A stretch of DNA of 64,000 nucleotides, taken from NCBI GenBank assembly GCA_030704615.1, contig CM060731.1, positions 83,142,001 through 83,206,000 on the forward strand. Reading direction: 5' to 3'. Every line of letters starts with the position of its first letter. The first letter of the stretch is position 1. The position numbers were made by a program, and so were the translations under genes. The notes under the pieces are model-generated. The model made no database searches, had not been told where the DNA came from, and saw only the letters and a list, made by a program, of their open reading frames with translations. Below are positions 5,695 to 61,300 of the stretch, one piece after another. The DNA is from Takakia lepidozioides (lineage: Eukaryota > Plantae > Bryophyta).

Positions 5695-5908
5695 GCATCC
5701 GGGGTGCCCCCCTCACCCCTCCTATCACCATTAACCCACCCATGCACACACACCTCTGGTTACTAGGTGCCCAACTGGGCACCAGTTTTATCATAGGGCC
5801 CACCCCCCGCAGGGCAGTAGCCGCAAGGCAAAGTGGCTCTTAGTTACGTCGGCTTCGGCCGGAGTCTGCTGTCTCTCTCTCTTCTGATATTGTCCAACTA
5901 TAAGCCAA

Positions 5909-6070
5909 AAAAAAAGTATGACACCTCCCGAAGGAAGCGTAACTTATGGAGTCACTTCACCCCGAAGCGCTACTGCCTTCCGCTAGGAAGGTGGACACCT
6001 TTGTGACACCAAGGATGGATTGAACCCACAACCACTTCCGAGGTGGTATGTGCCCATTACCGCTGGGCTA
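5909..6070 (-). mobile_element. tRNA-derived SINE with ~14-bp TSD
   Basis: The minus strand has A-box TAGCCCAGCGGTAA and B-box GGTTCAATCC and ends in an oligo-T tract. Flanks are CAACTATAAGCCAA (5895-5908) and CAACTAAAAGCCAA (6071-6084). Confidence 0.75.
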
Positions 6071-8269
6071 CAACTAAAAGCCAAGAGGAACTCTAAAGGG
6101 AGTGTAGTTCTCTATCCTTAAAGCCAAACAGTTGTTATCTGTTCTCAGCTGTTTCCATGCACAAGGATCACACTTTGATGTGTCAGGCATTCTTAGGGAG
6201 TGTCTGCTCTCAATGGGTGCTGCAATCTCAAGTATCTTCGATTCCCGGAGCATCCTGAGACCATCAATCACTACATGACAGAGGAGAGAGGAAGAAGCAA
6301 CACAAGTTAGCCCTGAAAATGGAGAGCTTGGACGCAGCAACACAAACTAGCATTGAGAGCCAAGAGCAATGGAAAGTCAAGTTTAGAGGTGCGTGCTGGA
6401 AGACGTTCAAAAGGCTTGTCCGCTCTATTACAAAGCATACGTTTGCATTCAGGAGTGAGAAGGAGCACCTCCCATTGCTTTAGGGTCTAAGCTGGTAGCC
6501 TTTAAGGGATAACACAGCCCCAAACAAAAGTAACCTGTCGTTTATCTTCATCATTCAGTTTATCTTCATTTCGCAGTCTACTGCTGGCTTGAGATCAGAG
6601 CTAACAGTGCATAAGTAAAAGAAGACACTAGTACACCATTTGAGAGAGGTCTACTTCACAAGCAACGAAGAATAAACTGGCAACCAACCCAGAGGAAAAC
6701 ATATTCCCATCACACCAAGCAGAAAGGTCTTGCTTGATTTGTGCACTTCCCATCAGACAGTTTGTGTCATGATTGCTAGAGCTTATAATATCCATGAGCA
6801 CAGTGACCTCCCTCAACGGAATGAATCCGAGCTCCTTGGTCTGCCTCCTTCAAACCAAATGCGCCGCAGCTTTGCGAGTTTTAGCCCTTGGAACCTCCCT
6901 TCCCCTTTGGCTTCCTCGTTCCAGTGCAGAAACCGGTGACAGTGGTAGCAACAGCTGCTATGTCGCTTGCAATTCCATTTGTAATCTTGCCCCTCGGGGG
7001 TACTTTGAACGACCCATGCTGACTGCCGTTGGAAGATCTTGGCTCCGTCATTGCAAATTATTCACGGGGAACGGAGGACCTAATATCAGAGAGAGAATCG
7101 AGCTGGGCTGAAACTCTCAGTTTTCAAGGAGTACAGCCATCAGAGAAGACATTCAGATGAAATTGAACTATCAACCAAGCAAGCAAGATCCCCTAAGCCC
7201 ATTTGAAACGTCTTCTCTGTGAATAGCCCTACAGACCTCCGAGCGCCAGCAGGAATGGCTCACCCATACACACCAACTGCCCACACGGCAGCTCCCTCAC
7301 AGTACCTCAATGGAAGCGACACTGCCGGAAAGCTCACTTCAAGTCCAAATTCTCAGACATATATATGACCGAGAGAGAGAGAGAGAGAGAACCAAGAGAG
7401 GGATGGGCAGGTGCCAGGAGCAAGGGTCAACCGGCTGCAGTCGGTTCTTTCCCGACGAACACCATCAGAGCGGTCATGAGCTGTCGCCAGTGATACAAGA
7501 ACCTGGGCTACCCTTGAAGATCAACGAGAATCAAGACTAGATCAACGACATCGACTGCAACTGCAACTGGAAGCCATGAAAAGGACTAAAGACTGACTAT
7601 GATCACGTTTGATTCTGTGGCAAAGGATTACATACACGTGGGCCTGGAGCATACGAAAAGCATTGAAAATATGTTCTTATTAGTCTTTGCCATCCGATTA
7701 CTTACTTACGAGCTTTGACGTCAGATTCGGATGCTTTGTGGGGCTTGTTGCAGGCATGCTAAAGCATGCACTGCAACTCCACAACTGACAACTGGACAAC
7801 AGCAAGATTGGAAATATCATGATGGGCCCAAGTACACTCAGCACCAATCTTTTCCCAATCTTTTCAGAAATTTTACTTACAGGTTGCATCCGAGTGGGCC
7901 ATGGCTTCAGTTCTAATGGCAACTCTTGGGCGCTACATATCACAAGGGCTGATTTTTCCTTTGTATGTTAATTAGAGGCACTTACTTTTCATTCCGTAGA
8001 ATTTTGTCTAGATTGTCCTGTGGGATGTCAGCATCAAGCCCTTAGGCCATTCTCTAGTACCTTCTTTCTTGTTGTCTGATCTACTTCAGGCAGTAGGTGA
8101 TGGTTTGATTGGCTTTGTTGTCTTGACATTTCCCTTGCTTTATGGGGTTTTATTTCTCCACTTAACAGGTTCTTGTTAACTGTACGGTCACCTCATTTGG
8201 AGTCTGTTACAGAGATATTTACATAGGGCGCACATTAGAAAAGGCCCCGGAGTTTAATGCGACCCCTTC

Positions 8270-8445
8270 GGTCCTGCCTGCGTGGCACCCCCCGCCACCC
8301 CAGCCGCACCCCCTTCGCCGGCTCATGCGCGGCTCGCGGTCGCTGCGCCCCCTCGCCCCCGCCACCCCACCCCTCCCCCCCCCCCCCCCCCGCGCCCCCC
8401 ATCCCCCTGCCCGCCCACCCCTCCCCCCCCCGCCCCGCCGGCCGT
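8270..8445. repeat. C-rich low-complexity tract (G-quadruplex-prone on minus strand)
   Basis: Dense C runs. The Pro/Gly-rich ORFs here are compositional. Confidence 0.6.
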
Positions 8446-9063
8446 CACCACACCACATGAACTCTGTGGCACATGACACCTGTCACCACAACCCATCATT
8501 GCGCACGGCATTAGCACATGACTCGGATGGATGGGATGTAACATGATCCATGTGCTGCAATCACCCATGATGATGGACGGCTTGACATGACAGGATGTGA
8601 CACATACTCATATATGGCCGTAGGGAGATCGCGATGATCATGCTTTCGTGCTTTTCGCGTCCAGTTCGCACGCACATGGTGGACCTGTCGATTCGAATGC
8701 GGCCCCTCAGCTGTCACTCCCCACGTCGATGCTTGATTGATTTAATTCATGGCAGCCACAGGACAGGTTCTCCAAGCTTCCTGGCGTTTGCATGGCCCGA
8801 AATGTATGATCCCGGCGGAAGCGGTGTTACAAGCACTTCCTTGCACAGTATGCATCGCGGCTGTTATAAACTGTTGACTGAGCTGTGGCGGTGAAGCGAT
8901 TACTCATTCGACTTGAGTATAGGGTTTCTTTTTGGAGAATTTGGAAGTCATTCGTGTGATTTGCAGCTATTTTCTTCCTCTTGCTTGCCATTTCTGTCTG
9001 TTGCAGTCCATTTGCGTGCTTCATGTTTTAGTGTGAGTTCTTGCTTTCACATTCCAACAACAT

Positions 9064-12000
9064 TTGCTCTGCTGGAGGATTCTTCAGGAGGAGGATAGTG
9101 GATTTGGAGTGGGCGCCGATATGGTGAAACAATCCTCCATGCGCGAAGCGCGTCGGACGTACAATGAAACGTACGACTCTGATGAGTGGGAAAATCTCAT
9201 ATGCGAGGCTCACTCAAAGGCAAGGGTTGAGCAGCCCGGTGATGATAATAGGAAGCCATTCAAGTCTATCCACTGTCTTAAGCAATATAAAGATAAGAAG
9301 AAACTTAACACTCACAGGATAAATGGCTGTGATGCTGCTGTGGGAAAGGGTAGGCCTAAACTGAAAATGTACCTTGTTTTTGAAAAGGGGTAGAGGCACA
9401 TCATGGAGGCTGTTCTTAGTAAGCACGGGATGAAGCCTCCTTCCTACAAGTTGATGAAGACGAGGGTAGAACGCGAGGAGACGACGGCAGAAGAGACTAC
9501 ACGAGAACCTAAGCGCAGGAAGCACATGAGTCTTCAGAAGGAGCCGGGAGTGGACCTTGACGATGACGATGACGATGACGATTTCCAGTTGTTGGACGCA
9601 CCTCCTGCGCTGCCACAGCAGACTGTTAGACCTCAGCGCATTCGAAAGGACTCATTGGACGCACCTCTGCCATCACAGGAAAGTCTTCCATCTGAGCGCA
9701 TTGTCAAGTCCACGTTTGTAGGACCTCCTGCCGTGCCGCAGCAAAGTCTTCGACCCAAAGTGCACGTTGGAGTTGCATCTTCAGGTAGACAAGAGGGCAG
9801 ACCTCCAGTGCACATTCTGAAGTCCACACCCCATGCACCGTAAGTAGAGAAGAGGCCAGGGAAGGCTTTGTCAAGGCGTCCTTGCTACTGACCTAGCTTA
9901 GATATTGTTGTGCCTCCCATATCCGCACCTGTTTCATGCCCAGGACTGACCTATCTGATGAAGTTCGACTTGTTGCCCGACGGATTTCCATCTCTGGACG
10001 AGCCTTCTTTTCTCAATCGTCTTGTGGCTCTTATTGGGAAATTTGAGTTCGGGGACCAAATGATGGGCAACGCTTTTGGTCAATGGTGGCTTAAACGACG
10101 GGTAACACACCTTCTTCTTGGCCTACACCTTCATGGTCACAACTTCTTCTTTGATGATGCGTGTCTTTGCATTTTGTTTGCAGTTGCCTTTCAAGTTTAG
10201 GGTTTTTGGTTAGTCTTCCTCTATTACTGACCAGCTCCATGACTCTGCAATGGCGGGGGAGCAGTTTGATGCACCTCCAGAGGAGAAGACAGCTGTGGAA
10301 AATGTGGTGGAGCTATTTGCCATACGTCCTGGAGTAACTCGTGACCATCCCGCTCAGTTGGCGGAATGCCAACTGGTGATGGCACATCACAAGTATGCCA
10401 TGGCATTACTGGATTTCGAAATGAAAGGAGTTGCAGCCCAGTCTGAGTTGGAGGCTCATAGAAGGCAGTTTGTTGACGACAACATGGCAAAATGGGATAG
10501 AGAACAATATGATGAGAAACAGGAGGGAATCTGGGGTCGGTCCCCTCTGTACCAAATTGTTGCAGCAGGTAAGATCCCTGAGTTGCCCCCCGATATGTTC
10601 ACACATTCTGAGGATGAATATGATAGGTTGATGGTCATTCTTGAGGCTGCTCGCCACCACGCTCCACCTCCAAACATTCCGCTTTTCAACAGGGTGTTCT
10701 GTCAGGTTTGGATGTCTCACGTTCACAACATGAAACCTATTTCAATTCCCCGAAACTCCATCTTGTTAACTCTGTGAAATCATCTTCTCAACACAGAAGA
10801 TGGCCAGTGTGCCATTACAAATGTGGGTGAGAATTTCTTGGAGATTGGATACTTCCTATACGGAGGCATGCCCCCATACGAGGAAGCCCGAACCCAGGTG
10901 CGTGAAGGACTTGCAGCCCTTCGGGAAGTGCGGAAAGAGGACTGCGAACACCTTTTTGAAGATCTACATGGTTTGATGCGCGAGGTCCGATGCAGGGCTG
11001 TGTGTGACCTCGCCGTTCTGAATCCTTCCTGAATTGTGTCGACCGCCTCCCCCTGTGGCCTCTTTCACTTCAGAACAAACCCTCTGTGACATAACTGAGT
11101 TCCAAAGTCCACCACCCCTTAATATGTGATGTCCCACTGATGAGGGTGCTATTGTACATGCAGTAAGCACTGTCGGATCTTCCGTGACCCCAGCTAACTC
11201 AGTGCTTAAACATGGGACAGAGCCTCCCACCCCCAATGCGATGGTTCTCGCACTGCCTTCGTCCATGCGACCTTACCACATCTTGTTTGATGGTGCTGAT
11301 ACACCTCACAGTACAGAGGCTACTACACGATTTCCTAGTGATGTACATGGCAGCGTCCGGGCATTGAATAAAAATGCAACCACTGCCACCTTTGCCAAAC
11401 CCAAGCCCATCCATACCATGGTTGCTGCCAAGGCAAAGGATGCGCTGCCCCAACCAGCACTTGCATTGCTGTGCAACAAAACCATGTCCAGGTATCCAGT
11501 GCCATTGTGGTTTTTTTTAATGTTAATGGTCTCTCCTCTCCAAATTGGAAATGGTGTATGTACGACGTTGCACATGCATTGACATATTGGGCTCCTGGAT
11601 GTGCAGGATACATGAAGGCCTCGAAAACGTATTGTGAGTTGCGACGCCTGTGCACCCTTTTTCATGCATGATATGGTATACCTTCCATCCATAGTTTGCA
11701 AGTGGCCTGCATGTGCATAATTATGTGGGCGGATTCTCATAGCAATGAGGTATGTGCCTTTTTTGCAGGCGGGCCAGTGGTGCAGTGGTGGCAAAAACAC
11801 ATGACATATGGTTTTTGAAGGGCTCTCGGGTTTCGTAAGTTCCTCTTAGACTAGAAGATGCAGATGACTTGCTCTCTGCAAGGGGGTGGGTCACTGACCG
11901 TCTATGGACTTTTGGGTGTCAGTTAAAATACTTTCTCTTCCTGAACATGTGTGCAATAAAATCCGTGTTGTAGATAGCTTCACATGGATATGCCTTCGCG

Positions 12001-12119
12001 ATCATTGTGCAAAGCAGGCAAATCAAGTTGACTCTGTGCGGATTTGGATGCAAAGACGGTTCCCCTTCTTCAGGAGTGAGGGTGTTGAAGCCCTTATTGT
12101 GCCAATTTTATGCAAGTGA
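9064..12119 (+). pseudogene. Degenerate multi-exon transposon accessory gene ending in a Ulp1/C48-protease-like fragment
   Basis: Serial ORF pieces (9064-9843, 9910-10200, 10250-10777) are broken by stops. 11904-12119 MDFWV...IRVVDSFTW...VRIW...ALIVPILCK resembles the N-terminal half of the Ulp1 catalytic domain and is truncated before the His. Confidence 0.45.
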
Positions 12120-12123
12120 GTAC

Positions 12124-12790
12124 AGCCCGCGCCACGCCGCAACGTCGGGAAAACGCCCTTTTCGGGCACGCGGGAGGCGCAGAATTTGCGACGCCCGACC
12201 GTCGCCCTGCAGTCGCAAGGGCGTCGCCAAAATGACGTCGCAAAAATGCGACGTATGGGGGTCGCGAGCCCCCGCCCTAACTCCCGCAACTGCCGGACAT
12301 CGGTTTTTCAGGCCGTCCGCGCCGATGGCAGGAGCCTCTTCGCGCGACGTCGCGCCGTCGCGGCCCTCCAGCCGACGGCGTTGGTGGGGGCGCCGGAGCG
12401 GCGTTGCATTTTATTTTTATTTTTTTCTAACCTGCCCGGGAGTCAGCTGGGTGGTACGCCAAGCAACTATTGGGCGTGGCACAAAACAGCAGGAGTCGGT
12501 CTCCGCCACGCCCGGGCGTGGGTTGTTGCGACGCTCCGGCGTCGCTTTTGTTTTAAATTTAATAAATAAAAAAACGTGGCGCAGGCAGGGTGGCGGTCTC
12601 CGCGACGCCTGGGCGTCGCGGCTTGCGACCCCCGGACTAAAAACACGTCGCAGGGGGTGTCGGGCGTTGCCGCCTGCAAATTGGGTTTGCGACGCCCGAC
12701 CGTCGCTGCGTGCGACGCCCGCCCAAAAAACACGTTGCCATTGGCGACGTGCTGCAGTCGCGAGGGCAGCCTGGTGGGGGGGGTTTGGGA
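12124..12790. repeat. Cluster of GCGACG/CGTCGC motifs in both orientations (CACTA-like subterminal repeats)
   Basis: TTTGCGACGCCCGACCGTCGC occurs at ~12185 and ~12687, with many GGGCGTCGC/GCGACGCC copies. No clean CACTA terminus is seen. Confidence 0.5.
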
Positions 12791-13118
12791 GTTCATTTTG
12801 GGGGTGAATTGGGGGTGGTTTTTTGTTTTCTTTTGTATTTGGGGATGGGAGAACTTATTGTTACATGCATGAAGGTGGGAGGTGTGATTCCATAGCCAGT
12901 AAGTTAGACAATGATGGCCGATTCGGCGACGAAATAACATCTCCTGACAGTTTCTCCTGAGGGTGGATCTAGCAGTATTCTCGGTGCAAACAGGAACGTT
13001 CGCACTGACAAGTGCCAGTACTGTTAGTTAAAACGGTCAGACAACCAAGTTGTGCTCATCAAGACTGGCCGCAATTGTGTTGTTTCGGAACAATGCAACC
13101 CATTCAGGTTCCGCATGC

Positions 13119-14700
13119 GGAAATGAGGTTCCGCATTTCCGTCTGGAGTGATACTTTCGATTGCTGCTGGACGGAAATATGGCGCCGCATTTCCGTTTTG
13201 CATCTTGGTCATGCACCAGAGCGACGGAAATGCGGCACCGAGTTTCCGTCCGGGGGAAACCTTTATACTCTCCAGAACGGAAATGCGGTAACGCATTTCC
13301 ATCCAGCAAGCACGGTATGTGAAGGTGGAACGGAAATGCGGTACCGCAATTCCGTTCTGATTGAGAATTATGAACAACGGGAACAGAAATGCGGCACCGC
13401 ATTTCCGTCCGAGTCGCACCTTCCGACATACCAAGACAGAAACACGGCGCCGCATTTGCGTTTTGTATCTGACGCATGGAGTTGAGGGATAGAAATGCTG
13501 CACCGCATTTCCGTCCGGGTGAGACCTTCATACTCTCCAGAACGGAAATGCGATACCGCATTTCCGTTCTGACTGAAAATCCTGAACCATCGGAACTGAA
13601 ATGCGGCACCGCATTTCCGTTTTATATCTGAGGCATGGAGCCGAGTGACGGAGAAGCTAGAGCGCAATTCCGACCGCTTGAGACATTTATACTATCCAGA
13701 ACGGAAATGCGGTACCACATTTCCGTTCTGACTGAAAATCGTGAACCATCGGAACTGAAATGCGGCAGCGCATGTCCATCCGAGTCGCACCTCCCGACAT
13801 TCCAGAACGGAAATGCGGCACCGCATTTCCGCCCGGGTGAGACCTTCATACTCTCCAGATCGGAAATGCGGCACCGCATTTCCATTCTGATTGAAAATCG
13901 TGAAACATCGGAACTGAAATGCGGTACCGCATTTCCGTCGGAGTCGCACCTTCCGACATTCCAAAACAGAAATGCGGCGCCGCATTTCCATTTTGTATGT
14001 GAGGCATGGAGCTGTGGGACGGAAATGCGGCACCGCATTTCCGTTCTGACTGAAAATCGTGAAACATCGGAACTGAAATGCGGTACCGCATTTCCGTTCT
14101 GATTGAGAATTATGAACAACGGGAACGGAAATGCGGCACCGCATTACCGTCCGAGTCGCACCTTCCGACATTCTAGAACGGAAATGCGGCGCCGCATTTC
14201 TGTTTTGTATATGAGGCCTGGAGCTGTGGGACGGAAATGTGGTGCCGCATTTCCATCCATGTGAGACCTTCAAACTTTCCGTCCAGGTGAGACCTTCATA
14301 CTTTCCCGAACGGAAATGTGGCACGGCATTTCCGTTCATCAACTAAGGTATGTGAAGGTGGAACGGAAATGCGGTACCGCATTTCCGTTCAGATTGAGAA
14401 TCATGAACCACGGGAACTGAAATGTTGTGCCGCATTTCCGTCCGAATCGCACCTTTCGACATTCCAGAACGGAAATGCGGCGCCGCATTTCCCTTTTGTA
14501 TCTCAGGCATGGAGCTGTGGGACAGAAATGCGGCACCGTAATTCCGTTCAACAACTAAGGTATGAAAGGTGGAACGGAATGCGGTGCCTCATTTTCTTCC
14601 AACAAGTACGGATGTGTAGCTTCGTGATGGTACTTAACGGAAATGCGGCGCCGCATTTGCATTTTCACTCCAAGTCATCAGACGCTGGGACGGAAATGCC
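13119..14700. repeat. Array 1 of 22-bp palindrome GGAAATGCGG(CA/TA/CG)CCGCATTTCC, ~29 copies, 53-bp period
   Basis: Copies start at 13173, 13226, 13279, 13332 ... 14233 in exact 53-bp steps (one very degenerate unit at 13650), then 14312-14524. The 31-bp spacers are drawn from about five or six recurring types. Confidence 0.95.
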
Positions 14701-16084
14701 TTGAAATGTGAACACGTGGAGCGAATTGCGGCACATGTCTGCATTCTATCTGACTGAAGTGGCATCAGGCGGCGCGGCCTGACCGTTGGATAATGATGTT
14801 TGTTTTTCGGACGGCAGGCGTACCCTGAACGATTCGAATTTCGTAATGACGCAAAGTCCACGAGGAGACACTTTCGTCCAACCCTTTCGAACCCAAGTGG
14901 TGCATCACCGCCGTTTCATCTTCTTTTGTCGTGTCTCCTCAGTCACCCCTCTCGCGCCTTTTCCATCTGCACTCTTTGCTCCTTTTCCCTGTCTCTGTTT
15001 TTCTTATGCTCGAACCTAAGAGAGAGGAGTGCGTGCACCAGAGAAAAGACATCGTCGCAAGCTCCAAAAATTGTACTTCGGACGTAGGCCAATGCCGAAG
15101 GGGAGGAAGCAGATGCGTCTACAAGAGGAGATTGCCATCTCGCAGCATCAGGCCACGCAGGCAACCCAGCCACTAGTGAGAGCTCCGTGCTATTGGGATT
15201 CGGCAGCTGATCGAGCACCGAAACCCGCCTCATTTTTCTTCTGCAATTCTTAGACTGTATGCTAGGAGACTTGAATGCAGAAGATGTTTGCATGCCTAAT
15301 CGGAAAGGTGGACGTGCTGGAATCGGAACCGCAGACAGAGTCCGTGGAGCTAGCTGCAGCACGCACACCCAGCCGATCCACGAGCACAAGTCTTCCTGCC
15401 GGGCCTAGCCCTGTGCGTTTCAAGGACGCGGCTTCCAAGGGCAAGTCTTTGTAGTTCAAAGCCCCAGAGAGCGACTCGCCTTCGAAGGTCATGGAGAATC
15501 GCCAACAGGGGTCTAGCCCTTCTCCAGCAAAGACGAAGAAGAAGCAGCCCGTCCTTCAACTTGTTTCTGAACCGGACCAGGCCGTTTCCCCCCCACCCAG
15601 GCGAATGAAGCAGATTCAATTGCAACAGACACCTTCACCTGCAAGAATGAGGAAGCACAAGGCAATCAGGGGGAGGGTGGAGCAGTCTCCTACAAAACTG
15701 ATTCCACGAGCTGAAGCCCAGTTCCTGCTTGATTTCTAGCCTAGTGATGTTGGGGGCGTCTCTGCTGTAGCGAAGGCAATGGGATCGACCGATTTCGTCG
15801 ATCTGGTACCGGAGGAGGGTGCTGCCTCTCAACGTTCGCAGCAAGACCTGACCACTGTTGAGGAAGATCTTCATAATACTGAAGGCCCGGAGGAGACCTC
15901 TGCGATTGCAGAATTGTCCGCAAAGATTCCACAAAGTGCAGCTCCAGTTGGGGATGCTCCAGCTGCTCAGCCCCTACCGCCACCAGCAGAAATGTCTCCG
16001 GAGGAATTCCAAAGTGCTGCGGATACAATGTTGGAGGAGACACATAGTAGCATTGGCAGAGTTCTGGGCAGCAGGGTATTCTAG

Positions 16085-16523
16085 CGGACTCTTCGAATCC
16101 CACTCTGTCGCATGGTCTCCCTTCCCATCGTCAGGCAGGCACTTCCCGGAGATGTGGATAAGCTCAAGTTCGCATTTCGAGAAGGGTACCGTCTAGGTTC
16201 GCCAGCCTTCTACGTTTCCCTTGAGAATGAGGACGGCGAATCTCGTGGACCCACTGCGGAGGAATTGTCAACATGGGATACCCACTGGCACACTTGCAAC
16301 GACGAATTCGAGGCAACACTGAAGGGTGATCCCGACTTCGGCCATATGTCGGGTAAAATGTTCTTTGTGTGGGACGGGAATCACCGACTTCTCGCCTGGT
16401 GGGAGTACATCAAGCAGAACCATGCCAAGCACATTGGCTGGCATTACATGGTGGAGTGTGTCATCCTCAAGGTGAAGGCGGCAGACTCCTCCTGCTCAAG
16501 AATGCCATGGCGGACCTCAACTC
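16085..16523 (+). CDS. ParB/Sulfiredoxin-like (ParB-N CTPase-fold) domain exon
   Basis: LPIVRQALPGDVDKLKFAFREGY...FFVWDGNHRLLAW carries the ParB-N features 'R...V..L...F...G' and hhhhDGxHRhxA. DGNHR is at 16373-16387. Confidence 0.7.
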
Positions 16524-18694
16524 GTAAGATACTCATACCCTCCCAAGCACGTTCGAAATGCGGTGCCGCATTTCGGTTTCCAATCTGTTTTGTTTCCGTG
16601 CTTTCGTGGACTGAACTGGAGAGTGTGCCTTGCAGGGTCACTGAAAATGCGTACGTGCATACCCACATGGCACATATGTTGTACAGGGTGAGGAAAACTG
16701 GTCTCACTGATCCGCACATGTTTGCGGAAATGCTGGAGCCCGAGCTCATTCGCCGTGGCAAAAACTGACCGGACATGGTATCGTCTCACTATGGATGGAA
16801 TGGTGGAGGTGATATACGAAGTAAGTCGTCCTCCCATTTCCCTCTGCTCATCCTTCCCCAATTTCCGGTAATCTTTCCACATGAATCGAATGTAACGCTT
16901 CTGCATGTTTTTGTTGGCAGTCAAACATCAAGCTGGATTTGGCCCATGCCAAACGCTTCTTCATGGAAAGTGAGGGGCAGGTCAAAACGTTGCAGTCATT
17001 GACTGAGCACTTGAAGGAAGCCGGGGTCAAGTCCAGAACGAAATACAAGTCAAAGCTTGTGAAGCTGGTGGCCATTGCAGATCCGGCACTTGGAAAGGAC
17101 TTCATCCCCGAGATTGCAAAACACTATTCTCGGGCCATGCAGCCGACCATGCAGTTGGAGAAACTGCATCACCTCTCAACGGCATGTGTTGAAGCGAAAG
17201 AGAAGGTGATGTTTCAATGCACTGAAGTTCCTTCCTAGCAATAGCCACTCTTCTTCCTGCTCCTGACATTGGATCGGAAATGGCAGACACGGTGGCTGTC
17301 GATCTGGAATGCATCGGAGAGTATAAGGACAATGTGGTCTTTTCCACTCGAAGTTTCCGACCCTGCAGTGGATGTGTGGCTCAACCGCATGACTTGGTGG
17401 TTCCAGGTAATTCAAGGTACTTCCCCATATTTGCTTTTCTGAAATGAATTCCCTGAACTGCTACGTGACAATGCATGTGGAATCGCAGGTAATGACGAAT
17501 GCGAAGGAGCAAGTCGTAATGCATACAAATTCGTTCGGCTTGTACGTCAAATGGGATGGAACACAGACATTGGAAGACTACGTGACACGTTTCAGATGTG
17601 CGTACAAGGACAACCTCTTCGCCAGGGAGCTGCAGACAGCAAGAAGGAGCGTGGAGTTTACACATCAGGAGGGAGCGGGAAAAGCTGCAATGCGAATTGT
17701 TTACAGGTGAAGCCCAGCTGTCCTTGTATGCGAAGCCTGGTTATGAGGTTTGTCTGGGAAATGCGGCACCGCATTCGCATTTTATGTTTTCGGTTGCACT
17801 CTGCGAGTACGTTGGTCTCAACTTTTGCTCACGCATGCTGACTGCCCTGCAGGTATATGAAATACGTGCTTCTTCAGACAGGGGCCCTGGCTCAAGAGCC
17901 CCCGTTCTTCATGGCTTGGACCGTGGCGGGCCCAAGCTGTGTCTACACACCCGAGATGCAGAAACAATGGCATGCCGCGCATCTGGTTGGATGCCCGTGG
18001 TACCTGGACATGTCTGGCGGAATTGTTGACGAGTCTGAGAAAGATCTGCACGCGAAAGCAAAGAGAAGAGAAAGGAAAGACGTGTCCCTGCTTGGGCCAG
18101 AGTCGGCAAAGGAAGCTGCTGCTCTGGAACAATCCAGAAAGGCAGCTGAGATGGCACAGAAGACGGTGGATGCAGCTGTGCAGGCTCAACAGAAGGGGTC
18201 CAAGAAGCGGACTCGCCAGCAAGGAGCAGCAGTTGTGACACCCAAGAAAACGAAGAAGCAGAAACAGATAGTGCAGGTAGAGGGTGAGGAAGAGGACTCC
18301 GATGGAGACTTTGCAACCAGCCCACCCCCCGAGACGCAGCCGAAATCCCCTGTGCCCACCGTTGTCACGAGAGGGACGAGAACTGGCTCGGCAAAGAAGG
18401 CACTCTTCAACCCCCCGGGGGGCACCCTTTCGAGCCGGTGGAAATGAAGAGGCCGAAAGTGGATCCCGATACAGTAGTCCAGTGTGTGAATGAGAGTTTC
18501 TTGGCGGCTTTGGATGGACGGGCAGCCAAGTTGGCATACATGAAGACCATGGAGGGTCTGAAGGGCAGAGCACTGAAGAAGGCGGCTGCCGAAGAGCCTT
18601 CCGACACCCCTGGGTTTCTGAAGATGGTCTCGTTCTTTGAGAGGGTGTGTGCAGACAAGGTTGCAGGAGGGGCGGAAATGCCACCGAGTGGTCT

Positions 18695-19630
18695 TGCGAT
18701 ATGATCATCTTGGATATTCCGGACGGAGAGCCTGTGGAAGGACTGCAAGCTTTGCCATCTTGGAACAGGTACTCCGAGGACTTTTGGAAGAAAGGATTCG
18801 GGCTCGCCCGCATGGTGTTGGACGACAGAGGCTGTGTGGTTGTCCTGGCGAGCAGAGGCAAAAACACGCAGACAGGAATTGCGAAGTGGACCCGCAAGAG
18901 CGCCGTCCCAATTCTGAAGAAGAAGTGGACGTGCATCAACACATTGGGCCTTTGGTCGGAAGGGAAGAAGGTAATTACGACATTGGCACTCGTCCTTTCA
19001 TTTTCTTAGGAGTTTTGAAATGCGGTGCCGCATTCGATTTCTTGTTCCCCACTGTGTATGCAGACAAAGCAGTTCGATGCATACTGCTTTGTGAAGGAGA
19101 ACTCCACCTTTGCTTTCCGGAAGGAGGGATTGTTGGTTGACCCGAACTGCGACCCCATCGATTACGACGTCCTGTTCAACAACGTTCCCACGGAACTTCT
19201 CCCTCATAGCCTCACTTCAACTGAACCCTTGCGGTATTCACGCACTCGGAGCCTTGCCTTCATTCAGACAATTATGGAGACATGCACTGACGTGGAGGGC
19301 ACAGTGCTCGACCTCATCTGTGGGACAGGTATGCAGAATCTTGTTGTATGCTATTCTGCAAACTCTCGTTATGCTTTCATTCGCAACATCTGAAGGGCCA
19401 TGTCATAATGTGTGGATGGCATTGTAACAGGTGCCTCAATGTGGGCTGGGCGGTTTTCCGACCGGCACCTCTTTGCCTACGAGGAGGACACATCCGTCTG
19501 GGGATCCCATCTGGAAGGGCTGCAACGGAATGTGAAGGCTCCCATTGAAGCCAAAGACTCCTCGGATTTGTCGGAGTCGGAGGAAGAGACAGTGGACATT
19601 GATGCCGAGGAGAACCCGCAATACGAGTGA
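18695..19630 (+). CDS. Beta-class amino-methyltransferase (N6_N4_Mtase-like) domain over three exons
   Basis: Motif IV-like CDMIILDIPDG (18695-18727); ARMVLDDRGCVVV (cf. ARRVLKPGGS). After splicing 19329-19430 the sequence reads RSLAFIQTIMETCTDVEGTVLDLICGTGASMWAGRFSDRHLFAYEED, matching motifs X-I-II. Catalytic motif before SAM-binding motif is beta-class order. Confidence 0.75.
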
Positions 19631-20343
19631 GTGCATTGTAAGTTTGCAAAGCCTTCTGGGTGATTTTTTGTCAAATGCATTTCCAGACTGTGGTCGTCAT
19701 TGGTCTCGTTGGTGATTGTTATGTGCAGGATTCCCGGATCCGGGTCGAAACATGTAGGGCCTACACTTCCTGCCAAGAAGAATGTCCCGTTCTTTGCGAG
19801 GCCCGACTTCATGACGAGCCCGGTGAAGGACTACTCCCTTCCTAGTTATGCAGCTAAACTCGCAAATACAGCGATTAGACGATGTGAGAATCCCAGTAAA
19901 GTAGAGCAGATTTTGGAGAGGGCTAGGGAGGACAGAAGGATAAGGAAAGAGTTGGCAACAGCTGAGACAGGTAGACAGGTGCGAAAGTTCATATGTGATT
20001 CAGCGGATGAGAGCGATGCAGACAGGGAGGACGACGAGCCAACGGAGGTGAGATGGTCGGTTCCGCAAGGTGAAGATGGGATTTTTGAAAGCCTGGCCAA
20101 CGAGCAGTCCGCTGGAGATGAGAAAGGCAATGACGGGGTGGAGGCGGAGCAGGACAGTCAAGGACAATCAAGGACAGGACGACGATAGTGATGATTTTCA
20201 AGATAAATAGAATTTTAATGAACTCTCTGTACATTTAAATTCTATTCCAAAGTATATAAAGGAAATTCTCCCCGTCCTTCATGTCCCCTCTCCCATTTGC
20301 CTCTCAACGACAACATCGTCCAAACCTGGTCCCTCCCAAAATC

Positions 20344-21312
20344 TGAAATGCGGCACCGCATTTCAATGTCTGAACGGAAATGTGGCAACTGCAAAAACCT
20401 CGTTTGGAAATGCGGCACCGCATTTCCAAAACCGGGGCAAGAACAATTTTCCGTTTCATGGTTTGGACATCAGAAACTGTTCGGACAAACGGAAATGCGG
20501 TGCCGCATTTCCGTTTCCGACACGGCAGTTTTGCCGATTGCCAGCTCCTTCCATGGAGGTAAATCGAAATGCCTAGGTCGAACATGGAAATGCGGTGCCG
20601 CATTTACCTTTTGGAGATGGACATTTTTCCAACTGCAGACCCATCGACGTTTTTGGGCTCCCCATACCATGATGCTAGACGGGAATGCGGCACCGCATTT
20701 CATTGTCCAATAAGAAATTTTGATGACGTACATGGAAATGCGGCGCCGCATTTCCAAAACGGACATCATTGTTTGCCCAATTCCAGACCCTTTGACGGAA
20801 ATGCGGCACCGCGTTCCATCGTCCTATAAAAACTTACATTGTCCTATAAAAACTTTCGATTGCCCAACATGAAAATGCGGCGCCGCATTTCCAAAACAGA
20901 CATCGTTGTTTGTCCAATTCCAGACCCATGTGGGCATTCCGTCTTGATGGACGGAAATGCGGCACCGCATTCCATTGTCCAATTCGATATTTTGATGACG
21001 GACATGGAAATGCAGTGCCGCATTTCCAGAACGGACATCATTGTTTGTCCAATTCCAGACCCTTCGACGGAAATGCGGCACCGCATTCCATTGTGCTCTC
21101 CGGAAATGTTGTGCCGCATTTCATTGTCTGGTACGAAATTTCGATGACGGACATGGAAATGCGGTGCCGCATTTCAAGTATGGACATGGACAAGCATTAG
21201 CAACTGGACATGCTTGGACAATTCAAGGTCCAATATGGAAATGCGGCGCCGCATTTCAAATTCGAAGTATGGTAATGCCATGTCAGGAAATGAAATGTTG
21301 TACAGCATTTCC
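20344..21312. repeat. Array 2 of the same 22-bp palindrome, ~15 copies
   Basis: Copies start at 20344, 20406, 20491, 20586, 20681, 20734, 20797, 20871, 20953, 21006, 21069, 21102, 21155, 21237 and 21291. Confidence 0.95.
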
Positions 21313-21665
21313 GTTACGACGACAACGAAGGAAAGGGAGCTGCCAGAAATCGCTGCATGGAGAAAAATGAAATGAAGTGCCGAATTTCCGAGCTTCGGCG
21401 TGTACATGTTTCCTACAACTCATAGATGGATTTTCTTCACCTCAAGACTCTGATATCGCTGACTCTGGTATAGTCATATGGACAGACACATTGTAGAAAT
21501 GAGACCTCAAATTGTAAACAGTGGGCCAATTACGGCAGTTCTTGAACACGATGAAACACAAGCACACAGAAGTGAGGTACGATGGGTTGTTTTATTGATC
21601 GAACAGGGTGTCTCACATTTAGCAACTCCAGACAAATCTAAGCCCTTCCTCCTTCTACATGGGCG

Positions 21666-22244
21666 TCACCAAGTCGACGGAACTTCGATAGCCCTCAAAA
21701 CAAGCTCATTACTGATGTGGCACCTGGAGGTAAACTGCAATGCGGTCGATCTGGTGCCCTTGGTGGAGCTGACGACAATGTCATGCCCATCAATCATACC
21801 ACCATCATACATTGACAAGGTCACTGTGGGCCTCCTGTGCCCGTGTGATTCGTCTTCGCAACTCAGCCGAATGTCTCTATACACTGGAAAAGCGGAGCGA
21901 ACTCCACGAATATAGTTTTCCCCGTTGCCGTCCTCCCTGGTCCACTGGCAGCAGTTCCAGCGCCAAAGTGAGGCCGTGCGTGATCTATCCGGCATCCCAT
22001 TCCACCTTGGTATATCGAGGTCAACAATTTTCAGGACCCAAGGACCGCATTGACCCTCGCCCTCACCTCGCTCAAAGCGGTAATAGCCCTCCAGATACTC
22101 CATTGCGCGCAAAGACTCCCGCTTGATTCCAGAAGCGTCTGTGAAAATAGAGAGCCAGACAATGATGTCTCCTGATTCAGGTTTGAACATAGCATAATCG
22201 TGGCCATGATAAGGGCAGTCAGCAGGATTTCGGCGGCACGGCAT
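21666..22244 (-). CDS. Uncharacterised intronless protein (~192 aa), paralog of 22800-23363
   Basis: Intact ATG-to-stop ORF that aligns end to end with its neighbour: MPC...DCPY.G.DYAM....SGDI..W, EYL.G.Y.FERG, RWNCCQWT, GVRS, DGGMI.G.DIVV, ELVLRA.EVP. Confidence 0.75.
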   Translation of the reverse strand: MPCRRNPADCPYHGHDYAMFKPESGDIIVWLSIFTDASGIKRESLRAMEYLEGYYRFERGEGEGQCGPWVLKIVDLDIPRWNGMPDRSRTASLWRWNCCQWTREDGNGENYIRGVRSAFPVYRDIRLSCEDESHGHRRPTVTLSMYDGGMIDGHDIVVSSTKGTRSTALQFTSRCHISNELVLRAIEVPSTW

Positions 22245-22799
22245 CCTTGAAAAAGAGTAGCGGAGTACGCTCAATGACAGTAGCTCCCGGATGGAGGAGG
22301 CAGCAGCGTGGTGGCTGGAAGAAATTCAAGCAAACGCTGCAATTCCTCACAAACACTCCAGGGCACATTTAAATTTCCCCCCGACAGGAACCTGCACGGA
22401 TGAAGATTGGATGCTCCATGAATGTAGCCGTTTCAGTTTCCTTCCCTGCCATGCAAAGTATGGGCAGTAAGTGCCAGCTGGGCCTATAGCCACTCGAGAC
22501 GACGAAGTCCATCCCTCCTTCGATGTAAATGCGGCGCCAAATTTCCATCCGGGGGATGGACTTCGGTGGCAGATTTCAAACTATACCCCGTGGATGAGAA
22601 AGAGGTATTGGTTCATCCACCGCTGGCGTGATGAACACGTTACACGATGATTGGTGGGTACTTGTGACCCAGATGCTCCATTATTGGAGCCCGCACTGCT
22701 CTTCCGCTTCTCATCATTTCGAAATCTAAGGGCTTTGTTGCTGTCCGCAAGGTCATTGTCACCGGCATCAAAGACGTCCTCAGGTCCTCCTTTGCAAGG

Positions 22800-23363
22800 A
22801 TGCCGTGCTTCCAGAACCGGGACGACTGCCCTTATGGAGGCATCGATTATGCAATGTATTCGGCCACATCGGGAGACATCGTTATCTGGTACACAGATTA
22901 CACAGAAGATACTGGTTCGAATGTGGAAACATTGTCCGCTTTTGAGTATCTCCCAGGCCAGTACGCCTTTGAGCGGGGTGACAATCTTGGTCTGAGGAGT
23001 CCGTGGCTCCTGCGCATCCTTGATTCCGATTTTCCCAGCTACGACGGGCACCCATGCAGAAGAATGCGCACTGCTATGCTGTTGCGGTGGAACTGCTGCC
23101 AGTGGACGTGGGTGGACTCCATCGGAGAGACTTATACTCCTGAAGGAGTGCGCTCATCTTCTCCATTGTATGGGGACATTTGCATTGGTGTGGAGGACGA
23201 AAACGTGAAGCTTTCCATATTCGATGGTGGTATGATTGAAGGGCAGGACATTGTGGTGAACATCAACAGGGGCGGTACAATAGCTGCAATCCAGTTTACC
23301 TGGAGGAGCCCAATGACTCATGAGCTAGTTCTCAGAGCAGTCGAAGTCCCATTGACAACGTGA
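22800..23363 (+). CDS. Uncharacterised intronless protein (187 aa), paralog of 21666-22244
   Basis: Intact ORF in head-to-head arrangement with its paralog and sharing the same motifs. Confidence 0.75.
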   Translation: MPCFQNRDDCPYGGIDYAMYSATSGDIVIWYTDYTEDTGSNVETLSAFEYLPGQYAFERGDNLGLRSPWLLRILDSDFPSYDGHPCRRMRTAMLLRWNCCQWTWVDSIGETYTPEGVRSSSPLYGDICIGVEDENVKLSIFDGGMIEGQDIVVNINRGGTIAAIQFTWRSPMTHELVLRAVEVPLTT

Positions 23364-24802
23364 CTTGTATTCAGAAGGCACAGGGCTAAAGATTTGTTTG
23401 CACAATTAGCACTGTAGATGTGCTTCAAATGCAATTCATGTGGATCAATAAAAACCCCATTGTGCCCTCTTTTTGTTCTATTCTGTATCCATCGTTCCCA
23501 AAATGCATCATTCCTCATTTCGTTTGGGATTGGGAGTGTGGGTGGATTTTGCAAGTGGCTGGTAGGCTGAAATGGGCCCCCATTGTACAGAGCAGTATAC
23601 CATTCGCGAAACATTGCCTTCCAATATGTAATTCTAAAAAACATTGCCGAACCTCCTTCATCGGGAGGTCCTTCTCCCCCTATGACCGTGACACCCTAAA
23701 CCCTATTCCTGCGGACACTCATTTCCGGAAAATAGTCCTGCTCATGTTTTTTTTTACACTTACGACTCTGCTCATGGCTCATGAAATAGCAGCCCCCCGT
23801 GTAAGAGGAAGCTATGCTTGACTGTACCTGTGGAGGCTATTTCAGTTGGACAGTATTATGGCTAATGGCGTTGGTATGTCCACAGAACCCTCGCAGATCA
23901 TTGTGTACTCTGCTCAGTTGCAAGTTCATCTTCTTACGGTCCCTGTTGTGATGATGCAATGTGAGTATTATGGAGAAAATGTGTCATATGGAGCTTGGTT
24001 GCTTGGCCTTCATGTGGAGCGGCAATCGATGAGGTTGATATTTGTTGCAAAACGGAATCCAGTTGTTGCCGCCGGTGAGAATCGGAATTGAGTGCATTTC
24101 ATGAACTGAATGTCTGTGATGTTTGAGAAAGTGAGGTTGCATTTTCGTCCTCTTCTTTCCTTAAGGCTGCCTAGGCTATAGCCTTCGAGCCATCCAATAA
24201 TATTCCGACTCTTGCACTCGGAATAGCTGCTTATGTGACCATATGCCTGAAAGCCCCCAAAAACAGTCAAATATGGGAAGCGGCATATGTTTAGTTTCTT
24301 CAGTTCTCAAAATCAGTAATGTATATCTTCATTTATTTTGAAGGAGGCAGTATACAGTGGAGGTGAACCTCACTCGTTCAAGACGTTTCCTGGTTAAGCG
24401 TCATCATGAAGATTTTGCTTTCGGAATGTTGATGAATGCTTTCCAATCGGTCTGGGCCGGGGGTGGCAGTGTAGCAGGGTTGGCGGTTTCACAACTCTAG
24501 TCATTGGTGACCTAGTAGACCGCATTTGAACTGGCATATGTTCAATCGCAGCTTAAGTTGCAACTGAAAAAACACACTCGCACTTACGTTTGGGCAAAGG
24601 CAGACACGTTTCAGGGCGTTTGTTTTTGGTACCGGTGTTTCCAACTTCCTTTGGGCTGCTTTTCATTACGAACTCAGGTCATGACATACTATTCAGGTAC
24701 GAATGGTTTCGTAAGGATATTCATGTTCATTCTACCTGATACATGGATTCAACACATTGCGCGAGCACATGAACGTCCACAACTAAAACAGGCGGCAAAT
24801 GA

Positions 24803-25944
24803 TCATGTAAACCACCAGCAGTTGCCTCTTACCGGGCCTGCGCCACCAGGTTGTGGATTCAAGTACGTTTGCACTAAGTACAGCTCAATGTAATGAGCTA
24901 CAAACAGACACTGCCATGTGTTGGCCTGTTGTGGAACAGGCGGGCAGAACCACCGCTTGAGGTCAGTCGCATCCTTCCACTGGGGGCTTTCTGGGCTGAT
25001 TCCTCTGACCATGGCCCATAAAGTAGCAAACAATGGCTTGAAAGCATGGTGCTTGTGCAAACGTCTTATGCTATTCAAGTGAAGGTAGCGAGACGGTTAA
25101 AAAATAACCAGACTCCAATGGTCATTGCACAGGGGGGCAACAACAGCAGGTTAGTCCACATGTAGCAATGGAGCACGGCCTTCTTCAAAGGTACGGCAAC
25201 AAGAAGGTAGAAATGCATATGTCGCAAAGGCCCCCCTTTTCCTGTAGTGTTTCTAGAGGAATGAAGGAAAGCCTGAACAAGGAGTCTTCAACTCATACCA
25301 ACTCTGAGAGAAGTAATTGTTTCAACATGCATGTACTATATGTCTGAAGCCGGCTTTCATGTACAAACCCCAAAATAGGGAGGCACAAAGTGAGAGTCTG
25401 GTGCAATGAATTCAACCAGTATCAGGTCTTCAATGAAAACATGAGAGTCTTACAATCTCTAACCATTCAGTCCTGCATAGCTGCAGACCTCATCCTCCAA
25501 AAACCCCTTAGAGGGGTCTACGACTATTATGCCCCTCTTACTTTCTGGGATGAGTTCCAGAAACTCTTGTATCCATCCCTCTCCCATATCTACATGGTAC
25601 CCCCAATCCACAACACCCTCCCCTTTATAGCGGCTGCTTGTGTGGTGCCAGGTCTTCATCACAAGCCTGTCCACGAAACCTAACAGCACATGGCACAAAA
25701 CCACAACTCTTTGCTCCTCTTCATCCATTGTGTAGAAACACTTCAGGTCGCCCATGTGGACTGTCATTGTCCTGACTCCTCCCTGGATTTTGTACACCCA
25801 CACTTTGTCCTGCCTTTCTTCCGTTTGCACCTTTTCAAGAAGGCGCAAGATGACCTCATGGGGAATGTGGGCTGACAATTTTTCAAAACCTGCATAAATC
25901 TTCTGGAGCCTGAAAGCTACACCCGCCCCAAAATCCCATTGCAA
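24803..25944 (-). pseudogene. Ulp1/C48 SUMO-protease-like gene, degenerate
   Basis: Minus strand reads VVAPLCNDHWSLVIF*PSRYLHLNS (catalytic His; Asn at the usual Asp position) then PVPQQANTWQCLFVAHYIE (Gln and catalytic Cys). It contains an in-frame TAA. Confidence 0.7.
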
Positions 25945-27454
25945 CCTTCAACTTGATAGAGTAGTCTCCTCGGAAAATGTCAGTACTATAGTGTGTGGAG
26001 AAGATGATTCCAAAGAGCTATGACAATCTTAGAAGAACACCAGGAAAATAATGTATACATGAGACGACTTGGGTAACCCTAAGATAACAACAGAACTTCC
26101 AGATACTTCCTCTTGAAAGAGATGATGTGAAGAAAAACAACGATGAATCACATGAAACATAGAATGACCCTGTGCTTATATTCAATTTTTGAACCTGCTC
26201 TTCTACAAGGTCTTGATGGGACAAACATGAACTCCCCCCCCAGCAGAAAAAACACCTATGTATATCCCATCGAGGGTTGCACTGTGTAATGGCTGCACCG
26301 TTACACATGGCATTTGCATCCGTTTGTCATCCATCCATTCTGTGTAGTGATCCCCCTGTCGGATTTATCAGCTTCACTTCTTCTTCTCTTATTCAATTGA
26401 GGTTAAGTAAAGTCTTTGTCACTGGAGAATGAACCTAGCTTTGTAAAATGTTGTTATGTACACATACACAATGAATACATCGTTCCTCTTGTGCTCAACA
26501 TTGTACAAGCGCTAATGTGAATGATTGTCACAGTTCGAAGAAAACAACCAACTTGAAGATGCACATAGGTTTTTCAGACTCCAGCTTGTCATGGTCTTGT
26601 GCAATTCATGTGTAACAACATGTCAGATTTACAGTATGACGCTACCATTCAAACACGATATCAGTAACCCATACAGAATGAATTTGCAACATTGTACATG
26701 GCCCAATGTGAATGCAAGTGGCAGTATGAACATGAACCCTAAAATGCCAGATGCATTGAGGTTTTGTGACCATAACCTGTTGTAGTCTTACTCAATTCAC
26801 ATCTGTAGTCTCTTATTTTGTATGTGAGAGGGAGTGGCGAAGACTTCGACAATCTTAGTCTCCATGGGGTTGGGTTGGCTTCTGTGTCATGGAATAGAAT
26901 GTCCATGCCAGGTTACAATTTACATATTTTACCAGCAGCAGGACCTGCTGTGAAATTGAAGCATAAGAAATCACCATTGAGAACATAACTGTGAGAACCA
27001 TGGGTCAGAAAATGGCACAGCCCCTGGATATAATCGTGTGACACTGTGACCTCATGTCTGGAGGCATAAGTCTGGAGGCATAAGTCCAGAATTTTGTGAA
27101 AGAAAGACTCCAATGAAGGTAGATACGGGAACAACTGTTTTCTCCAATGCCCCATTTGGATCGCCGATGTGCATCCCATGGATCGATGAAGTCTGTAACG
27201 TCCGCACGGTTACACATGAAGTTTCATCCATTCTTCTGTCAGATGTCTTTTCATCCGCCAACCATCACCCGACACTATCATCCTCAATCCTCATGTTCTG
27301 TCGCTGTTCATCCCATCGACGGATGAAATATGTGTGCATGCACGGTTACACATGATTGTCCATCCATTATTTTCTCAGTTGCCTTTTCATCCGCAGATCA
27401 TCATCCGTCTGTCTCCTCCTCAAACCTCATGTTGTTTTGGCGCGTAAGGAGGTT

Positions 27455-27720
27455 TACTATTTCATGAGCAGAAACCATGAGCCATGAGCCATGAGCTGCA
27501 TGAGCCGCATGAGCGGTGAGCCGAAGTCTAAGACACGCGGATTTCATGAGCGGACTCCTCCAAATTTGGAAATGCGGCAGATTAAACAAGTATTAAAATA
27601 ATAGTTTTATATTTGACCTTGCCGTTTTTGGAAGTTACAGATCCTGTAATGCGGCGAAGATATGTCGTCAGTAACAACTCCGCTCATGGTTTTTTAGATC
27701 CGCTCATGGAAATGAGTGAC
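27455..27720. repeat. CATGAGC/GCTCATG motif cluster
   Basis: CATGAGCCATGAGCCATGAGCTGCATGAGCCGCATGAGC plus inverted copies. A related inverted cluster is at 23735-23790. Confidence 0.6.
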
Positions 27721-28278
27721 CGTGCAACAAGAAATCCAGTATACCACGGCAAAAGGACGTCGCATACTGGCCTGTATAGAGTATTCCGCGGTTTTACATG
27801 CCTTAACATTGGAATGAAGCTGACCCTTTTACCGCGATTGAACCAATAGAGTCTGCACAATTCTGTCATCTTCTAGTATTCGGCGGGAAAGGTTTGCTAC
27901 TCAACTAGGAAATGCGGTGCCGCATTAGGGTTCGCACGTGCAAAATTTCTGGGCAGTTTGGTGTTGGTGAATGCCGCATCTACCAGTACCTACGACGTTA
28001 CTTGGAAATGCGGCGCCGCATTTCCTTGCCGGGGGTCGAATGAGGAAAGCAAAGTTTGGGAGAGCAGAAAAACAGGAACCCTCCAACACACAAAAATACA
28101 TGCACGTGGAAACACGAGTGAATGACATAGTATTATCTTAGTTCGAGAAAAACAGGTTACTGGTAGGCAAGACATAAGTCGGACCTTTCTGTGGCCAGAG
28201 TCAGAGCTACTTGCAGCAGTACAGTTCTACTATCCGAAAAGGATGGGCGTACCATAGTGTTGGGACCGCAAGCCAAGG

Positions 28279-29010: not shown

Positions 29011-29095
29011 TGTCGTGCGCATACATATCGCACACAACTACATCGTTGTCCAAACCACACCACACATATATGCACAATAAAGTAGTCTGCCACAA
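29011..29095 (-). repeat. Terminal segment B of copy A (PPT AGGGGGGCGA at 29096-29105)
   Basis: Near-identical to 61301-61391 and 61744-61829. Confidence 0.9.
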
Positions 29096-29353
29096 TCGCC
29101 CCCCTAGCTGGTGGATAGGTCCCTCTAACTCCAGATAGCTACAAGATATAATAGCCACAGCCGTACTAAGTCCTCTATCACTGTCCCTATTGTACTCAAC
29201 TCTATCAACCAAGAGGCCGGGTACAAGAGTAGCCCCATCGTTAGTCGCCGTCTTGCAATCTGTGAACTTGAGCCAGGACCTCGTGTGTTCAAGGTCTCCT
29301 AGTAGCTGGGCCTTGCGTTTCTTGTTAGCCTTCCATAGTTGTATCCACTCCCA

Positions 29354-40672: not shown

Positions 40673-40676
40673 TCCT

Positions 40677-61290: not shown

Positions 61291-61300
61291 AGGGGGGCGA
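61291..61300 (+). promoter_or_regulatory. Polypurine tract
   Basis: AGGGGGGCGA immediately precedes segment B in both copies. Confidence 0.75.

Follow-up and report, generated by a model that had tools for sequence, protein, structure and literature searches.

The window, by which we mean the whole 64,000-nucleotide stretch of Takakia lepidozioides DNA that was analysed, contains a ~15.5-kb element that is likely, although not proven, to be a Mutator-like DNA transposon. In its canonical form (27449-29006, then 40673-43661, then 12862-23797; 15,483 bp in total) the element reads from left end through a transposase gene (minus strand), a tandem array of palindromes (array 1), a ParB-methylase fusion gene (plus strand), a second array (array 2) and two small genes, X and Y, to the right end. 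Its parts are placed in the window as follows.

12862-23797, no strand: part of the host transposon, with array 1, the ParB-methylase gene, array 2, the two small genes and the right terminus; marked by a depth step and loose contig ends
15092-20188, plus strand: fusion gene, spliced and decayed, with a ParB/Srx-like domain, a helical middle and a beta-class amino-methyltransferase-like domain; start codon and introns are predicted
16094-16523, plus strand: ParB/Srx-fold exon with a conserved DGNHR motif
18692-19626, plus strand: methyltransferase-like exons, with motif IV LDIPDG (non-canonical) and motif I VLDLICGTG
21669-22274, minus strand: gene X, a small gene (~190 aa), 51% identical to gene Y
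22800-23363, plus strand: gene Y, a small gene (~190 aa)
23740-23797, no strand: right terminus, with GCTCATG subterminal repeats and a 21-bp terminal inverted repeat (23777-23797); target duplication at 23798-23805
27449-27708, no strand: left terminus, where a 21-bp terminal inverted repeat (27449-27469) is accompanied by nine repeats of GCTCATG type; target duplication at 27441-27448
28279-29006, minus strand: transposase, 3' part; it includes a SWIM-type zinc finger whose match (E 0.017) falls below the Pfam cut-off
29007-40672, minus strand: nested LTR-retrotransposon material, an 11.7-kb insertion in the transposase of the window copy only
40673-43661, minus strand: transposase, 5' and catalytic part (ORF 43554-41443, interrupted by a single in-frame stop at 41875)

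The canonical order was adopted because the DNA preceding 12862 at the 5' junction of array 1 is, in loose contig ends of runs X5 and X6, window 43639-43661 plus six bases, and because the joint 29006 to 40673 is present in all four runs, so that the transposase is continuous outside the window copy. The window copy itself is circularly permuted and decayed. Reinsertion of a rearranged circle, segmental duplication and an assembly artefact are possible sources of this arrangement. The permutation (12862-43661) surrounds a 3.65-kb low-copy segment (23798-27448), and short microhomology is found at the 43661/12862 break. The segment that received the insertion also carries a 136-bp imperfect tandem repeat with internal palindromes (27165-27433 and 26255-26309).

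The terminal inverted repeats are 21-22 bp long and 82% identical, and fall inside the 14-500 bp range described for MULEs (PMC6446971). The 8-bp target duplication, with seven of its eight bases identical, lies in the 8-11-bp range of MULEs, and one X1 contig represents an empty site (joint 27443 to 23801). Twelve of the 14 GCTCATG copies within the element are located within ~260 bp of its ends. Contigs of four public runs were also placed on 8300-28200, which yields summed contig depth and not copy number. By this measure, run X1 rises from 1,290-2,233 over 8300-11619 to 238,000-519,000 over 12948-20251, array bins included, and run X5 rises from 4-10 on the left flank to 167-402 over the same interval, such that the element is 40-200 times deeper than its flank. 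Depth returns to flank level at 24236-26891 and then rises again. This step indicates that the element is highly repeated and that the array is a regular component of it. Run X8, labelled as RNA but possibly containing DNA, shows no splice joint in the parts of the element that it covers.

Neither the Pfam MULE families nor NCBIfam matched the transposase, and a PDB sequence search with it returned nothing significant. Inspection by eye reveals a D..D..CxxH pattern, which we take to be MULE-like, and GCM/WRKY-like zinc-binding motifs. Its named Atlas neighbours are all ZSWIM-RNaseH/MULE/FLYWCH/GCM proteins, but at scores under 0.9. Genes X and Y form a divergent paralogous pair that matches no family in Pfam, NCBIfam or PADLOC, and the accessory ORFs in general match no Pfam family. 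A candidate viral relative of gene Y (L009) was rejected as a short seed inside an unrelated 888-aa protein, and weak Pfam matches to Levi_coat, CDtoxinA and TMEM215 (E of at least 0.011) were attributed to chance.

Several other mobile elements share the window. Two gypsy retrotransposon copies, at 52163-61391 (plus strand) and 29011-38238 (minus strand), are 95% identical; in the plus-strand copy a C5 DNA methylase (E 2e-10) is placed between gag and RT, and in the minus-strand copy a PHD finger follows the integrase. Gypsy-Dnmt3 elements are known from the charophyte Klebsormidium in an account (PMC5890265) whose relevant part does not mention a PHD finger. To the left of the Mutator-like element, the GC-rich interval 12120-12810 has repeated GCGACGCCC/GGGCGTCGC motifs in both orientations and looks like the end of another, lower-copy element with genes at ~9100-11900. 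Harbinger- and hAT-type debris is represented by a Myb/SANT-like fragment (644-1129, E 3e-6) and a BED-finger-like ORF (1891-2451). A very deep short repeat at 45940-46720, with many loose ends at 45938-45944 and 46575 and related copies at 48894-49988, is probably a SINE or MITE family.

Palindromes were located with the 24-bp copy at 13808-13831 as the reference, allowing up to 7 mismatches of 24. They are distributed in the element as follows.

13118-14661, no strand: array 1, 29 copies of a 20-24-bp palindrome with half-site GAAATGCGG, centre YR and period 53 bp
13172-14255, no strand: exact run of array 1, 21 consecutive palindromes at exactly 53 bp
14250-14306, plus strand: 26-bp tandem duplication, the source of the single 79-bp step in array 1
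16553-16576, no strand: single palindrome within predicted GT-AG intron 16524-16635
17756-17779, no strand: single palindrome within predicted GT-AG intron 17707-17852
19015-19038, no strand: single palindrome within predicted GT-AG intron 18971-19063
20343-21390, no strand: array 2, 16 palindromes spaced by 33-95 bp; most spacings are close to whole helical turns (53, 62/63, 74, 85, 95)
22524-22547, no strand: single palindrome between genes X and Y
27907-28026, no strand: two palindromes (27907, 28003) at a spacing of 96 bp, in the interval from the left terminus to the 3' end of the transposase

In the canonical element, array 1 separates two divergent genes, those for the transposase and the ParB-methylase, whose 5' ends face it. 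The 21 consecutive units at exactly 53 bp reported in the original prediction were recovered as copies starting at 13172+53n up to 14232, or 20 exact intervals. Its extent of 13173-14545 captures this genuine core run but falls short of the full array, which begins with one further copy at 13118 (54 bp before the regular run) and, beyond the 79-bp step, resumes the 53-bp period for five copies from 14311 to 14523 and ends in decayed copies at 14574 and 14638. The same prediction was confined to array 1; array 2, the palindromes in introns, the ParB-methylase gene and the host transposon are all absent from it.

Spacers were compared among 25 of the 26 regular units; unit 14232 was left out because its spacer is interrupted. 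They belong to four recurring families (9, 7, 6 and 3 units). Between families, the 20-bp palindrome core is 85% identical (225 pairs), whereas the spacer interior is 30% identical, with shuffled sequences giving 24 +/- 0.6%. The description of a conserved palindrome with dissimilar spacers is thus accurate between families but not within them, where spacer interiors are 76% identical (75 pairs). The spacers at 13331 and 14073 even agree at 29 of 29 positions. Three of the four spacers previously quoted as examples match letter for letter, but the third is one base off unit 14126, and two of the four share one family. Spacers that align with one another as well as the palindromes do had been named as the mark of an ordinary diverged minisatellite; at 30% against 85% between families, they do not align that well. 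Higher-order tandem periods occur at 159 and 212 bp, the former being strongest. Array 1 probably grew by tandem duplication of such 3-4-unit blocks, which accounts for the shuffled order of its spacer families. A coding role for the ORFs that cross the array was rejected because they belong to no family and 53 is not a multiple of 3.

All 51 palindromes detected in the 64-kb window are inside the host transposon. Likewise, all 64 exact 9-bp half-sites fall inside the reconstructed element and none in the other ~48.5 kb of the window, and the array is therefore not a product of chance. The 22 palindromes outside array 1 comprise 16 in array 2, three intronic and three intergenic copies; the palindrome is confined to the non-coding parts of the element, and its arms and spacing are constant. 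Searches of viral contigs gave no match, and three single, unclustered matches in bacterial genomes are taken as chance.

Arm positions 3-11 are 89-98% invariant over 102 arms. The arm CpG is intact in 86 of these arms, whereas the central CpG persists in only 11 of the 51 palindromes. The 14 distinct spacings below 120 bp have a mean cosine of 0.55 at a period of 10.5 bp (p 0.0006 versus uniform draws; p 0.012 for 10 hand-merged spacings), p values that are generous because the spacings share ancestry. Seven periods were tried, and no signal appeared at 10.0 or 11.0. With diverged spacers free of indels over 21 units and whole-turn phasing in both arrays, the proposal that selection acts on the site and its spacing, and not on spacer sequence, is supported. 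Retention of arm CpGs, loss of the central CpG and phased spacing in the two arrays likewise agree with the earlier suggestion of phased dimer-binding sites.

The fusion gene has suffered frame-changing indels relative to other copies. A search of 1.84 billion representatives with its ParB exon (16094-16523) yielded 474 relatives at E <= 0.001; nine of the ten that were looked up are named and come from the liverwort Riccia sorocarpa and two ferns of the genus Adiantum, and no viral relative was found. On the sequence alone, the host would be placed among the streptophytes, probably the seed-free land plants. DGNHR is 74-98% conserved in 86 sequences, and the Atlas neighbours of the exon are DUF3723/ParB_N proteins. 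A structural model of the exon (pLDDT 90.8) searched with VIA has Myxococcus ParB as its top match (Z 7.5; 77 residues at rmsd 2.2), and all 29 rows at Z >= 4.4 are of the ParB/Srx family. Foldseek also returns only the ParB/Srx superfamily, at E >= 0.12. With Z under 8, this modelled resemblance suggests a match at the level of shared fold.

Identification of the methylase domain draws on relatives. The full-length Riccia relative P0156, which matches both ends of the window gene, has a C-terminal N6_N4_Mtase match (E 5e-5) and resembles phage DNA methylases (E 9e-7). P0154, P0156 and P0157 carry PF01555-type methylase matches at E 1e-5 to 5e-5, under Pfam's cut-off, and the methylase profile of the relatives finds the window gene when searched back (E 6e-9). 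Foldseek places the P0157 methylase model, which is poor (pLDDT 50.6), with the beta-class enzymes M1.HpyAVI/CcrM (E 1e-4). The last methylase exon alone found no homologs, and PDB sequence searches with the ParB and methylase profiles gave nothing significant. Motif IV reads D-[LIMFV]-P-[T/S/D/E/I]-G across relatives (DIPD in the window, DIPE in L001), and among those in which the motif was found, one fern copy only has the usual aromatic residue. Because motif IV lacks this residue, catalytic activity, as judged from sequence, is doubtful. No DNA-binding domain was located in the fusion protein, whose middle region has no Pfam match.

Five related loci (L001-L005) were retrieved from metagenome contigs; L003 and L004 are one locus, and L005 is of the same family. 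L001 encodes the same spliced fusion, colinear with the window gene exon by exon, and its introns contain no such palindrome. Upstream of the gene, L002 has seven palindromes with core TTCGGYRCCGA (spacings 127, 127, 128, 470, 75 and 75), and L003/L004 has six, which are longer and at their centre fit a decayed CGGCGCCG (L003 spacings 111, 161, 198, 124 and 179, which are out of phase). Thus, gene and palindrome cluster are paired in both independent loci with upstream sequence (L002 and the L003/L004/L005 family), and the palindromes of both share an 8-bp core compatible with CGGCGCCG while their arms are family-specific. L003 also includes a SWIM-like transposase fragment (730-1242, identified by eye, with no Pfam match) 9 kb upstream of its ParB relative, and a second array of a ~59/61-bp imperfect palindromic repeat (5900-7280).

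Confinement to one element, constancy of arms and spacing, and recurrence at related loci indicate that the palindrome is very probably a putative protein site maintained by selection. We favour, with less assurance, the view that the protein is the element's own ParB-methylase, and that the phased arrays are probably loaded by its dimers in a VANDAL/VANC-like manner. The fusion protein would bind as a dimer, one subunit contacting each arm and the central two bases being ignored. Whole-turn spacing would place dimers on one face of the DNA and could permit cooperative loading beside two divergent promoters. By analogy with bacterial ParB on parS, the protein might then form a clamp, gated by a nucleotide, and spread along the element. 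The element could be marked with N4-methylcytosine or N6-methyladenine or, should the methylase be inactive as an enzyme, bound protein might simply occlude host 5mC silencing; either way the family would stay active, much as VANDAL does through VANC. Binding, clamping, catalysis and anti-silencing are successive steps of falling probability, and as a complete chain they are a tentative proposal, with odds below even. Slightly more doubtful is its extension to seed-free land plants at large, in which a widespread Mutator family would operate its own parS/ParB-like clamp on helically phased arrays, spread a bacterial-type N4-cytosine or N6-adenine mark or a protective coat over its own family only, and co-evolve arms and protein family by family around the shared 8-bp core. 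Against phased binding stand the absence of phase in L003 and of intronic palindromes in L001. If true, the proposal would add a second anti-silencing mechanism, unrelated to that of VANC, and a eukaryotic ParB clamp on DNA with possible use as a programmable epigenetic tool.

Alternatively, the transposase might bind the palindrome for activation or synapsis, or the products of genes X and Y might do so, leaving the ParB-methylase gene as a passenger. Transposases can be sequence-specific activators of their own copies, as described in 10.64898/2026.08.24.746577; this one has the zinc-binding motifs and GCM/FLYWCH neighbours noted above, and two palindromes are near the left end of the element. 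However, the termini carry a different repeat (GCTCATG), and palindromes concentrate within and on both sides of the ParB gene. Analogous clusters occur at related ParB loci, and the red-algal ParB-like gene is described as adjoining arrays across transposon families (10.1101/2025.02.11.637652), leaving transposase or X/Y binding unlikely. A host transcription factor or chromatin protein could instead use the array as a bidirectional enhancer or for nucleosome positioning (3 x 53 = 159 bp). This would agree with the location of array 1 between divergent genes, its CpG o/e of 1.32 compared with 0.5-0.7 in the surroundings, and the dominance of the 159-bp period. We judge it quite improbable, since a 20-bp site with arms that differ between related elements better fits an element-encoded, co-evolving binder, and no copy resides outside the element within the window.

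Neutral evolution as a higher-order minisatellite, or as tiny palindromic inserts homogenised by recent duplication and hairpin-driven gene conversion, draws on the 159- and 212-bp periods, the recurrence of spacer families and the capacity of palindromes to self-correct. These processes leave it hard to explain why spacer families near random identity have identical length, why the same core is kept in unrelated flanks (introns, array 2) and why spacings follow whole turns. Nor would self-correction preserve arm CpGs when the arms diverge from family to family, and we regard neutrality as improbable, slightly less so than host-factor binding. A CRISPR-like array, or a multi-hairpin RNA cut into 53-nt units, both of which had been suggested, is the least credible explanation and very improbable. 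The repeat-spacer geometry is suggestive, and folding of array 1 RNA is predicted to be strong (z -10.6), but such folding is trivial for palindromes, which pair mostly with one another and not as unit hairpins. Moreover, no Rfam family matches the array, spacers recur in four families, no cas gene is found, the context is eukaryotic, and single intronic copies cannot be 53-nt units.

Binding by the element's own ParB-methylase, the reading that we prefer, can be compared with several known systems. The palindrome and constant spacer length recall CRISPR arrays, but recurrent spacers, a eukaryote with spliced genes and LTR elements, and the lack of cas genes (none among 39 ORFs, 17 exons/proteins and 8 proteins in PADLOC) set the locus apart, and the CRISPR-like framing was not upheld. 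Nor is the analogy with plasmid iterons apt, as the array is a cis-element of a DNA transposon. Bacterial ParB-parS, as well as Noc and KorB, offers a palindromic site suited to a dimer. The locus shares with ParB-parS such a site and the fold of the N-terminal domain, yet differs in that no ParA ATPase is present among the element's scanned ORFs, no HTH was located, the setting is a eukaryotic transposon and the methylase is fused. Like MpDN4MT1 of Marchantia, the window domain represents a beta-class bacterial-type amino-methyltransferase in a seed-free plant. However, the Marchantia enzyme is described as a product of host genes whose motif is the canonical TSPPY and whose 4mC activity is proven (10.1101/2021.02.12.428880), whereas the window domain is transposon-borne and ParB-fused, with a non-canonical motif.

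Self-binding and epigenetic self-modification are stated to have been shown for no transposon family other than VANDAL (10.1101/2025.02.11.637652). Its VANC sites, experimentally proven, are described as 8-9-bp non-palindromic motifs in tandem repeats, introns and intergenic DNA (PMC5735166). The window element agrees with that account in being Mutator-like and in having a family-specific motif in the same three settings, with motifs that differ between related families. It departs in its palindrome, its clear terminal inverted repeats and its large ParB/methylase accessory gene, which is set apart from VANC by description.

A similar fusion protein is that of Ectocarpus Sola1-1_Ec32, a giant DNA transposon described as encoding a ~1,100-aa ParB-like and 4mC/6mA methyltransferase fusion on the strand opposite its transposase (PMC12477816, which cites Iyer 2011 for green algae). 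The likeness, by description and not by sequence, extends to the fusion and its orientation; Sola1-1_Ec32 belongs to the Sola superfamily and a brown alga, and the available description mentions no target array. Literature searches found no description of such a system in liverworts, mosses or ferns within their scope, which left most subscription papers and Repbase outside; the Bostrychia supplements may bear on this point.

In red-algal Plavaka and Mutator elements, Petroll et al. (10.1101/2025.02.11.637652) report accessory genes of ParB-like and methylase type that lie beside arrays of inverted repeats. By description, the window element resembles the carriers of these accessory genes, PAG2 and PAG3, in being a giant DNA transposon with a ParB-like accessory gene, inverted-repeat tandem arrays next to it and a PF01555 methylase, for which those authors make the same proposal of self-binding and self-modification, there as a prediction only. 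In PAG2/PAG3, as described, two separate genes are involved, one joining ParB to a 2OG oxygenase and the other joining the methylase to SET, whereas here a Mutator-like element of a green plant has both in one ParB-methylase gene. Section 8 of the red-algal description mentions neither phasing nor intronic sites nor a shared core. The accessory class itself has already been predicted, and the window element represents a Mutator variant of the land-plant lineage whose candidate site is sharply defined. This locus supplies that site together with its tolerated variation, a spacing rule, family-specific variants in relatives and a lineage with transformable models, which makes the prediction of ParB/methylase accessory function directly testable.
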